A DNA stretch of 64,000 nt, from positions 2,627 through 66,626 of IMG/VR virus record IMGVR_UViG_3300043256_000125. One strand, written 5' to 3'. Under the pieces are notes generated by a model. It made no database searches, was not told where the DNA came from, and saw nothing but the letters and a program-made list of their open reading frames with translations. Of the stretch, positions 33,620-34,572 are shown one piece after another (the first letter of the stretch is position 1; every line of letters begins with the position of its first letter). Source of the stretch: a virus. Both the position numbers and the translations under genes were made by a program.

Positions 33620-33720
33620 AAAGCACGGCGGCAAGGAGCTCACAACACTCGCGGCCGTGTTTCCACGCAGCGAAATGGGGAGGGCAAGTCACCATCGCGC
33701 GTACCGCCCGCCGTGCTGTA
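33620..33720 (-). ncRNA. Structured RNA motif, copy A
   Basis: AGCACGGCGG...CCGCCGTGCT closing stem plus U tract; internal CGTG-GAAA-CACG; paralog at 34475. Confidence 0.65.
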
Positions 33721-33780
33721 CCTGACATCCGCATGGAACGCCAGGGAGTATGTGTATTGGAAAGCATGAGGAATTTCCCG

Positions 33781-34443
33781 CTAGACCGGCATATAGGCGC
33801 CTACAGTCGCCATATCCAGGACGCTTCGTTCGATGTCTGTCAAATCCCATTGCGCCAGCACGACAAACAAGTCTTGCGTGATACGGCGCAGCAAATATGG
33901 ATCTTCCGGGGCTTCAGTCCAGTTTGCCTCCCAGAGAATGACGTAGTTGTCCAGGCAGGCTTTTGGACGGAAGGCCGGGGGTACCAGCGGCACGCGAGCC
34001 CTTAAGTCGTCCCTGAGGCGAACGCTAAAATAGTCCCGTGGAAAACGAAACGTCCCAGTTTTGGTAGCCCGAGTTGCGTCGCGAGTTTGCCACGCGGGAT
34101 TCATGGCGTGATCTGAGACAAAACTGCTCGCGGAATGTATCCAGCGGCCATCCGCGTCATGGAGATCACCAGCATCCCAGCAAAACCACACCCACTTGGC
34201 GGTTGCGCGGGCGACAGCCAAAACAGGGCGACCCAGCGAATCAATGCCGGCAGATCGCATAGCTTTATTCAACGAGATCACTGTCCGGCCCATTTTGAGT
34301 TGATGGTAAGCGGCCAGTAGCTCCCTGTCCTCGGGAGTTCCAAACCCATCCGTTACTACCCGCCTGTACTCGGCGTACTTTCGTCGAGCCTGGAGCCGCC
34401 ACGTTTTCGGAAGCTTCGCGTCCTCGATTACTGCTGTTGACAT
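33781..34443 (-). CDS. Conserved phage hypothetical protein
   Basis: GAGG SD; C-terminal DPYLLRRI..DLFVVLAQWDLT motif; flanked by the two motif copies. Confidence 0.65.
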   Translation of the reverse strand: MSTAVIEDAKLPKTWRLQARRKYAEYRRVVTDGFGTPEDRELLAAYHQLKMGRTVISLNKAMRSAGIDSLGRPVLAVARATAKWVWFCWDAGDLHDADGRWIHSASSFVSDHAMNPAWQTRDATRATKTGTFRFPRDYFSVRLRDDLRARVPLVPPAFRPKACLDNYVILWEANWTEAPEDPYLLRRITQDLFVVLAQWDLTDIERSVLDMATVGAYMPV

Positions 34444-34474
34444 AGGAGCCTCTTTCGGGAGTTGGGTAAAGAGT

Positions 34475-34572
34475 AAAGCACGGCGGCAAGGGGCCAACCA
34501 AGCTCGCGGTCGTCTTGCAACTCAGCGGGTTGGTGAATGGTAGCCATCCCGCGTACCGCCCGCCGTGCTGTA
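34475..34572 (-). ncRNA. Structured RNA motif, copy B
   Basis: Same ends as copy A; internal GTT-GCAA-GAC hairpin. Confidence 0.65.

Follow-up and report, generated by a model that had tools for sequence, protein, structure and literature searches.

Two stretches of about 100 nucleotides (nt), identical at their ends and divergent in their middle, stand on either side of one gene on the minus strand of a phage genome, which raises the question of what such a repeated module does and whether it is maintained as DNA or as RNA. The DNA analysed, hereafter the window, comprises 64,000 nt and represents most of the 66.6-kb IMG/VR virus record IMGVR_UViG_3300043256_000125 (CheckV completeness 72%). 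The flanked gene is designated gene X, and the module copies upstream and downstream of it are designated A and B. The module is a real and rare element borne by mobile elements, in which selection holds the core fixed and keeps the interior folded on the sense strand. Its role is proposed tentatively, with a probability of about one in three (0.35), as that of a cis-acting leader or transcript-boundary RNA that would be recognised sequence-specifically and would act as a conditional terminator or insulator.

The initial annotation, made by reading the letters of the window, had placed two copies of the motif on the minus strand, and both were recovered there by a repeat search, BLAST and a covariance model. 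In the repeat search, A and B were direct repeats, 76% identical and 852-855 nt apart, and BLAST against the whole phage record returned exactly two places, with 100% and 77% identity (E 2.5e-17 for the second). Similarly, a covariance model of the A and B pair, run with filters off over the 64 kb, scored 125.2 bits at B and 121.7 bits at A, the next-best scores being 16.4 bits for its own antisense and 16.3 bits for an element at 27894-27963. A and B agree throughout the first 23 nt at the 5′ end and the last 17 nt at the 3′ end, and the differences are confined to the inside. The 10-bp closing stem was indeed the same in both copies, and the inner hairpins carried GNRA loops as described (CGUG-GAAA-CACG and (A)GUU-GCAA-GAC(G)). 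The covariation ascribed to this hairpin came down, within the window, to one pair (U-G versus G-C); the outermost pair is broken in copy A.

A covariance-model search, one of the checks suggested in the initial annotation, brought two further versions with the same five helices. The first, B′, lies in the metagenome contig L125, 57 nt downstream of an orthologous gene X (87% identical), and the second, T, is present as an identical module in two contigs of Thermoguttaceae metagenome-assembled genomes, L205 and L217 (79.2 bits with model R1 and 105.9 bits with model R2). The known family amounts to four distinct sequences in five places, and these four versions (A, B, B′ and T) were aligned to the model in alignment A5. 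In the common scheme, helix P1 has 10 bp, formed by a perfect 10-bp terminal inverted repeat at the module ends, and P2, of 5 bp, is stacked directly on it; an AC linker, a 9-bp P3 with a loop of 10-13 nt, a UG dinucleotide (UC in T), a P4 of 3-4 bp, the return strand of P2, a 4-bp P5 with a 7-nt loop, a CUUG linker and the return strand of P1 follow in that order. The whole module is ~97 nt long, and the 73-76 nt inside P1 make up helices P2 to P5. The P4 loops belong to the GNRA type in all four versions (GCAA, GAAA, GAGA and GCAA), and the adjoining pair is U-G, G-C, C-G and C-G across them. Folded separately to minimum free energy, B, B′ and T each arrived at these five helices, and the optimal fold of copy A differs from the consensus, yet is compatible with it. 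Standard pairs fill 93.8% of the 128 pair cells, and the conserved unpaired positions number only ~9 (AC, UG or UC, and CUUG).

No Rfam family accounted for this architecture, in agreement with the initial annotation, which had matched it to no known riboswitch or ribozyme. At the gathering thresholds of Rfam 15, the only match in the window was a tRNA, and at E ≤ 10 over positions 33000-35400 the minus strand of the module gave none. One Rfam match alone overlapped the module, to the Pseudomonas small RNA P31 on the plus strand, with 16 bits against a 40-bit cut-off, and the five gene X loci closest to that of the window gave no match at E ≤ 1. Other identities were rejected on features of the copies themselves. 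A coding sequence is contradicted by 23 consecutive invariant bases beside a 61%-variable interior with no periodicity, and the template and variable repeats of a diversity-generating retroelement by differences that are not adenine-specific and by copies placed outside genes. Likewise, the P5 loop is not a T-loop, as a tRNA-like fold would need, and complementarity for a P3-P5 loop-loop kissing interaction was found in copy A only.

The core of the module was defined as alignment columns 7-26, 69-73 and 89-102 (39 columns), of which two are variable, against 35 of the 57 interior columns (Fisher 7e-9). Between the orthologous copies B and B′, there are no differences in the 39 core positions and 19 in the 54 interior ones. 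Over the same distance, gene X has diverged between the window and L125 by 17.8% overall, and 47 of its 105 four-fold degenerate sites are changed. Since the core of B and B′ is intact while four-fold sites differ by 45%, the core is under purifying selection in place; the interior changes at a near-neutral rate and the core is frozen. Neighbouring plain hairpins drift, the upstream one being 75.5% identical between the window and L125, and the immobility of P1-P2 is therefore special. A further hairpin lies downstream of copy B (33567-33586, minus strand; ~2311-2330 in L125), where the pairing is kept and the stem sequence is different. The frozen core argues for sequence-specific reading by some factor. 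As to the interior, its pairs were kept at 14-16 of 17 between versions, against the 10-11 that survive on average when equally many substitutions are scattered at random (12 ordered comparisons, P 0.0004-0.11; P = 0.018 and 0.003 for B and B′), in a simulation that is partly circular, structure and alignment having come from the same four sequences. Moreover, G-U cells outnumber A-C cells by 13 to 2 (8 and 2 distinct pair positions), an asymmetry that favours the transcribed strand. The selection on RNA structure claimed in the initial annotation is supported in part, by the G-U excess and by the sparing of interior pairs, but not by significant covariation or by strong folding z-scores.

The comparison of the window with L125 also bears on whether the module is primarily an element of DNA. 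By BLAST, the two loci form a mosaic, with the order A, gene X, B in the window and gene X, B′, gene Y, remnant in L125. Copy A is absent from L125, where 20 nt separate the hairpin from the ATG. The extra gene Y of L125 (1861-2262) is placed between B′ and a second P1 3′ strand (duplicated 13-17 nt), and it is precisely over this strand that the two blocks of homology share 17 nt of the window. The module also marks points of cassette gain or loss. A DNA-level element, similar to a miniature inverted-repeat transposable element (MITE) or to the linkers described in T4-type phages, could mediate the insertion, deletion or exchange of cassettes, its RNA fold being incidental. The perfect terminal inverted repeat fits this idea, as do the presence/absence polymorphism of copy A at an otherwise homologous site, the bounding of gene Y by duplicated P1 3′ strands where the window has a single copy B, the occurrence of the same module in unrelated flanks, the 9-nt direct repeat flanking T, and an interior divergence of 30-43%, near the 45% of four-fold sites. 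Nevertheless, it is rather improbable. An inert insertion would decay, whereas in B and B′ the core is intact at all 39 positions despite a 45% difference at neutral sites, so that it has a function where it stands; the excess of G-U over A-C cells and the survival of interior pairs also speak for RNA. Each host genome (G001 and G002) has one copy, not many; copies A, B and B′ show no target-site duplication; and the A-filled and L125-empty sites have no common 3′ flank, which is not the picture of a clean insertion. The module has the terminal inverted repeats of a MITE, but neither the many copies nor the general target-site duplication. A purely selfish DNA repeat is unlikely because the orthologous copies keep the core intact.

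The closest precedent for such linkers is found in the PeSL (promoter early stem-loop) elements of T4-type phages. They are ~100-bp conserved intergenic repeats flanking orphan genes in variable regions, with a strong sigma-70-like promoter, a simple G/C stem-loop that is proposed to be a transcriptional attenuator, and many copies in each genome (PMC2839356). The module resembles them in being repeated, in flanking orphan genes and in standing just before the next Shine-Dalgarno sequence and ATG; related phages likewise differ by cassette gain and loss, an ORFan lying between two elements in one phage where its relative has a single element (PMC2839356). It differs from PeSLs in having no promoter, a branched five-helix fold, an invariant core and only two copies in the phage genome. 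A promoter scan of positions 31000-38000 gave seven sites, none in or next to either copy. A sigma-70 promoter would not fit inside the module, and no -35/-10 pair was read by eye in the 3′ halves of the four copies. With no promoter, the module is not a PeSL.

All copies are intergenic and lie on the strand of the flanking genes, in four versions and three genomic contexts. After P1, each is followed by a tail with 6 (A), 3 (B), 4 (B′) or 8 (T) U in the first 10 nt; the tails of A and T align, and their upstream flanks do not. The distance from P1 to ATG is 33 nt from A to gene X and 35 nt from B′ to gene Y, each with a Shine-Dalgarno sequence, and T is followed by an adjoining element, T2 (P1 and U6), with ATG 20 nt further on. 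Considered as a nut-like boxA, the tails gave a weak lead only (GCUCUUU in T, CUCUUUA in A, neither in B and B′); GCUCUUU matches the start of a boxA-like string found in one of four rrn leaders examined. As for T2 (L205 5263-5350, also in L217), it follows T directly, begins with 9 nt that recur in the stretch before T, has short core strings in common with the module, a wholly different closing helix, no P5 and a U6 tail, and it may be a diverged tandem paralog (15.9 bits, with an E-value of 0.00039 that holds for a 401-nt search only). It was not counted as covariation because any two model-aligned hairpins would look compensatory.

This arrangement recalls a transcription terminator. According to WebGeSTer DB, usual intrinsic terminators have a stem of 7-14 bp and a loop of ~4 nt, and tandem ('U-shaped') arrays occur (PMC3013805). 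The module shares with the former a GC-rich 10-bp stem, directly behind which three of the four copies have more than 3 U in 10 nt, an intergenic location and the sense strand, and with the latter the presence of plain hairpin terminators less than 50 nt away. It departs from typical terminators, which drift freely in sequence, by its frozen core of 39 nt.

In the reading favoured here, the ~97-nt module would be transcribed within minus-strand polycistronic phage transcripts and would fold into two stacked three-way junctions, with P1 and P2 joined in a 15-bp coaxial helix that bears P5, and with P3 and the GNRA-capped P4 at the end of P2. The constant core of P1, P2 and junction would be read by RNA polymerase, by a protein or through tertiary contacts such as GNRA loop docking, and P3 to P5 would need only to remain folded. 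Acting in cis at a gene-cassette boundary as leader or insulator, the pre-folded P2-P5 domain would bring the P1 strands together, so that P1 closes directly before the U/C-rich tail and pauses or releases a regulated fraction of the polymerases, as a conditional terminator or attenuator does. Read-through transcripts would carry the next gene, with its Shine-Dalgarno sequence and ATG a further 20-35 nt on. The gain and loss of cassettes would be a by-product, for which the repeated invariant core would offer homology patches. The absence of a promoter inside the module fits this reading, as does the location of the region in an early-type gene block, ~1.5 kb downstream of sigma-70-like promoters beside an HTH_3 gene.

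Several observations weigh against this reading. The folding z-scores are weak (-1.2 to -1.9), so that energy does not separate the module from shuffled sequence, and the antisense folds as well or better in two of the four versions (-44.9 versus -41.2 for A and -48.8 versus -47.0 for T), although without the common architecture. P1 never varies and therefore gives no evidence from covariation, the compensatory pairs are two (columns 60-65 and 75-87), and in a formal test of the covariation proposed in the initial annotation, 57 of 500 column shuffles of the four distinct sequences reached the observed score, which is not significant and only suggestive; the circularity of the pair simulation counts here as well. 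A stem of 10 bp (15 bp with P2) around a structured interior of 73-76 nt is unlike the usual intrinsic terminators (PMC3013805). A plain terminator is insufficient as an explanation because it leaves the frozen 39-nt core and the branched interior unexplained, and a rule of at least 5 U in 8 holds for only two of the four tails. Moreover, a canonical hairpin and U-run stand 11 nt (A) and ~21 nt (T) upstream of P1, which makes a second terminator look redundant, copy B has no convincing following gene, and among the sequencing runs listed for the region there is one DNA run, possibly the source, and no RNA run. The interpretation draws on four sequences: the copies, their common fold, the frozen core, the placement and the indel polymorphism are observed, and transcription of the module, termination or attenuation and recognition by a factor are inferred. 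An arginine-rich open reading frame (ORF) of 16 amino acids (aa) after copy B was rejected, not being conserved in L125.

The frozen core and the early-operon position could also suit a processive antitermination RNA similar to HK022 put or Tn916 canT, whose core would bind the polymerase and make it resist the hairpin terminators of the early operon. In HK022, put is an RNA of ~70 nt whose two stem-loops are arranged as a V; it lacks a closing helix and lies upstream of the terminators that it overrides (PMC9378689), and put and canT are cis-acting structured RNAs of mobile elements, with stems read by RNA polymerase and no dedicated protein (PMC9378689, PMC11658703). HK022 has two related put copies, and canT was mapped to a 452-nt region (same sources). 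Like put, the module is structured, borne by a mobile element and present as two related copies in one phage. A sequence-frozen core is what a polymerase-contacting RNA would be expected to have, the copies are phage- or prophage-borne and, in the window, downstream of early-type promoters (~1.5 kb), and many start codons of this phage group lie directly behind terminator-like hairpins, so that read-through needs organising; further terminator-like structures are found downstream (for example, 27963..27894). Even so, such a role is decidedly unlikely. Copies A and T come after, not before, a strong hairpin and U-run, two copies lie 855 nt apart on one transcript, and P1 with its U-rich tail resembles a stop signal rather than a go signal. 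The ~97-nt, five-helix architecture with its 10-bp closing P1 is unlike put, and no Rfam antiterminator family was matched.

The downstream structure just mentioned (27894-27963, minus strand), probably a strong terminator, is intergenic and consists of an 11-bp GC stem around 37 nt with AUUUUUC behind it (fold z -4.8). Its 5′ strand has 10 nt in common with the P1/P2 strand of the module. Long-range stems with a U-run of the same type were also seen in L125 (~300-360) and in L205 (5263-5350).

The surroundings of the window copies, listed in the table, are those of an early-type gene block of the phage. The window has a G+C content of 57.6%, and nearly all of its long ORFs lie on the minus strand.

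Table. Coordinates of the module copies and of neighbouring features in the window
Feature	Position	Strand	Evidence or remark
sigma-70-like promoters and HTH_3 gene	36.0-36.6 kb (promoters 36.0-36.4 kb)		promoter scan 31000-38000; domain match
187-aa ORF	between HTH_3 region and tRNA-like RNA (minus-strand order)	minus	
tRNA-like RNA with ~150-nt insertion	~34856..34631	minus	upstream of copy A; fold z -3.4
GC hairpin (canonical) with UGUUUCU	34621..34581	minus	11 nt upstream of copy A P1; z -3.0
Copy A	34569..34477	minus	repeat search, BLAST, covariance model (121.7 bits)
Copy A, P1	34569-34560/34486-34477	minus	alignment A5
Copy A, P2	34559-34555/34510-34506	minus	alignment A5
Copy A, P3	34552-34525	minus	alignment A5
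Copy A, P4 (GCAA loop)	34522-34511	minus	alignment A5
Copy A, P5	34505-34491	minus	alignment A5
Copy A, CUUG linker	34490-34487	minus	alignment A5
Tail of copy A (UUACUCUUUACCC...)	34459..34476	minus	pyrimidine-rich; 6 U in first 10 nt
Gene X, 220 aa	34443..33781	minus	flanked by copies A and B
Copy B	33717..33622	minus	repeat search, BLAST, covariance model (125.2 bits)
Copy B, P1	33717-33708/33631-33622	minus	
Copy B, P2	33707-33703/33655-33651	minus	
Copy B, P3	33700-33670	minus	
Copy B, P4 (GAAA loop)	33667-33656	minus	
Copy B, P5	33650-33636	minus	
Copy B, CUUG linker	33635-33632	minus	
Tail of copy B (UUUCAAAACA)	33612..33621	minus	3 U in 10 nt
tRNA with very long extra arm (~62 nt)	33491..33358	minus	Rfam, 37.2 bits; downstream of copy B
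PD-(D/E)XK exonuclease gene	30465..29299	minus	further downstream

As the initial annotation had it, copy A follows the tRNA-like RNA, but the strong GC hairpin with UGUUUCU intervenes, and copy B precedes the other RNA, lying 130 nt upstream of the tRNA called by Rfam. The location of the window copies in a cluster of tRNA-like genes, which need processing, and the paired 5′ and 3′ ends (P1), typical of stable processed RNAs, would suit an RNA processing or stability element, which would be excised from the polycistronic transcript or would shield it (a site for RNase III, E or P, or a block to exonucleases), or a stable, trans-acting small RNA, and the combination of a conserved junction core with variable peripheral helices, a pattern of small ribozymes, would suit a new self-cleaving ribozyme. 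One of the contexts is beside an integrase, and integrase neighbourhoods often hold small ribozymes. Structured elements are also known in phage polycistronic transcripts, such as the RNase III sites in early and late transcripts of T7 and, from the tRNA cluster of T4, the stable RNAs C and D, some of them next to tRNA genes and long unclear in function; the module is similarly repeated, structured and intergenic, a likeness by description only. The T7 RNase III sites are single irregular hairpins, and the Rfam search implies no similarity of the module to them or to the T4 stable RNAs. Taken together, the processing, small RNA and ribozyme roles are unlikely: the prophage copy T has no tRNA-like neighbour within ~1.7 kb, only ~9 unpaired positions are conserved, and neither hammerhead, twister, twister-sister, pistol, hatchet, HDV nor any other Rfam model was matched at E ≤ 10.

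The neighbouring features show some variation of their own. The tRNA-like RNA at 34631-34856 (minus strand) has an acceptor stem, a D arm and a T arm around the ~150-nt insert and was called by neither ARAGORN nor Rfam; L125 has a small ORF in its place, and a different ~70-nt element with a T arm in place of the tRNA at 33358-33491. Between copy B and this tRNA, a mini-ORF of three codons (33530-33541, minus strand; ~2356-2367 in L125) stands behind a strong AAGGAG Shine-Dalgarno sequence and is conserved in both phages, reading MRW stop in the window and MRF stop in L125. Upstream of the whole block, positions 36020-36601 hold twin 88-aa ORFs on the minus strand, the first of which is the HTH_3 protein (E 1.8e-12). 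Each twin is preceded by a 21-nt repeat and by back-to-back sigma-70-like promoters on both strands, and the region is probably an immunity and early-promoter switch.

A leader-like position, 20-35 nt before a Shine-Dalgarno sequence and ATG in three of the four contexts, raises a further alternative, in which the module would control transcription or translation of the next gene, either as an operator bound by an RNA-binding protein of the phage or its host or as a riboswitch-like leader that senses a ligand. The closing P1, the three-way junctions and the GNRA loop are found in many aptamers, but the invariance of P1 beside variable inner helices is the reverse of most riboswitch aptamers. 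The downstream genes (gene X, gene Y and a 200-aa gene behind T) are unrelated and have no common regulated function, unlike those expected behind a metabolite riboswitch; a riboswitch is unlikely for this reason. Moreover, no Rfam riboswitch was matched, and this alternative is very unlikely.

The flanked gene reported in the initial annotation is a real one, and it proved widespread, with 49 homologous proteins and 249 metagenome stretches encoding relatives, although none was found in an IMG/VR search. Its product had no Pfam match at E ≤ 1 and only three weak PHROG matches (E 0.16-0.36). The AlphaFold model is confident, with a predicted local distance difference test score (pLDDT) of 87 and a predicted template modelling score (pTM) of 0.84, and shows a helical N-terminus and a beta-rich body, for which Foldseek returned no match in the PDB at E ≤ 0.001. 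Gene X represents a real, widespread phage and prophage family to which these searches assigned no function. When the best 80 of the 249 stretches were searched for the module, it was found in one, L125, and a filters-off check on the five closest agreed. In L126 and L127, whose gene X is 74% and 69% identical, there is no module and the genes are tightly packed. Being present in one of these 80 loci, the module is therefore no partner of gene X, and it is not tied to it.

In the Thermoguttaceae contig L217, a tRNA, an HTH gene, small genes and a tyrosine-integrase-like gene are followed by a hairpin with U-run, T, T2 and the 200-aa gene, the integrase and tRNA labels being a reading of the sequence by eye. 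The 200-aa gene is presumably DUF3102-like. The canonical hairpin and U-run lie ~21 nt before P1 of T, as they do before copy A. A phage attachment site (attP) was rejected for the module, since the tRNA of L217 is at the end of the element, ~1.7 kb away. Apart from the module, the only protein-level link between the phage and this element is an ATPase-like ORF next to T (L205 5902-6525). Over 115 aa it has 31% identity (E 3e-7) with window positions 26503-26841 (minus strand), part of a 485-aa ORF at 25408-26865. This likeness is a weak hint that the host of the phage may be a planctomycete.

Further copies were sought widely. In IMG/VR, an exact scan with a 19-nt core string gave no match; a three-anchor pattern gave 83 stretches, none with the P1 strands, and was too strict, as it would miss B′ and T; a two-gap core pattern gave one stretch that the covariance model did not confirm; and a P1-independent pattern anchored on P4 and P2 gave none. 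Cultured phages had no match to the 1.6-kb region or to T, and plasmids had none to copy A. A pattern scan of GTDB, with one genome per species, returned 41 stretches, of which only L205 and L217 were real, as confirmed by the model. Over the 151 genomes of the family of G001, model R2 was strong only in G001 and G002, with one copy each; its seven weak matches (20.5-25.9 bits) comprised five inside ORFs of 431-1035 aa and two plain hairpins. Of 401 genomes of the order, 10 have relatives of the 200-aa gene, none of them with a module nearby (best 16.8 bits), and a pattern allowing up to 3 mismatches matched 311 of 401 genomes, a reversed-pattern control matching as often, which means chance. 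BLAST of T against 401 genomes of the phylum gave 31 genomes at E ≤ 0.01, all but G001 with partial matches of at most 70 nt, and on 19 loci of these partial matches the covariance model reached 14.4 bits at best. In sum, no further convincing copy appeared in IMG/VR, cultured phages, plasmids or ~1,360 genome searches (family of G001, order and phylum). A protein search with the exonuclease yielded no related loci, and one with the 187-aa protein yielded 39 loci in which only the C-terminal domain is common.

The nearest analogues of the module (PeSL, put/canT and tandem terminators) each fail at least one defining feature, and, in the portions available of the literature on PeSLs, put and antitermination, terminator classes and structured RNAs of Planctomycetes, nothing describes it. 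A bolder proposal built on the same sequences would see in the module a new catalytic or polymerase-modifying RNA class of Planctomycetota phages, either a self-cleaving ribozyme with its active site in the invariant P1-P2-P5 junction or a put-like RNA reprogramming polymerase at cassette boundaries, with the repeats also driving cassette exchange; it is considered improbable.

The phages of Planctomycetota are, to our knowledge, almost unstudied, and we know of no account of how their long one-strand operons are punctuated. Should the module be only an elaborate terminator, it would add modestly to the intergenic repeats known from phages. It is otherwise a candidate for a new RNA-based mechanism, whether terminator control, polymerase modification or self-cleavage, and its size of ~100 nt makes it directly testable in vitro. 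The module survives transfer between unrelated mobile elements, marks the points at which genes are gained and lost, and provides a concrete handle on the regulation of Planctomycetota phage operons.

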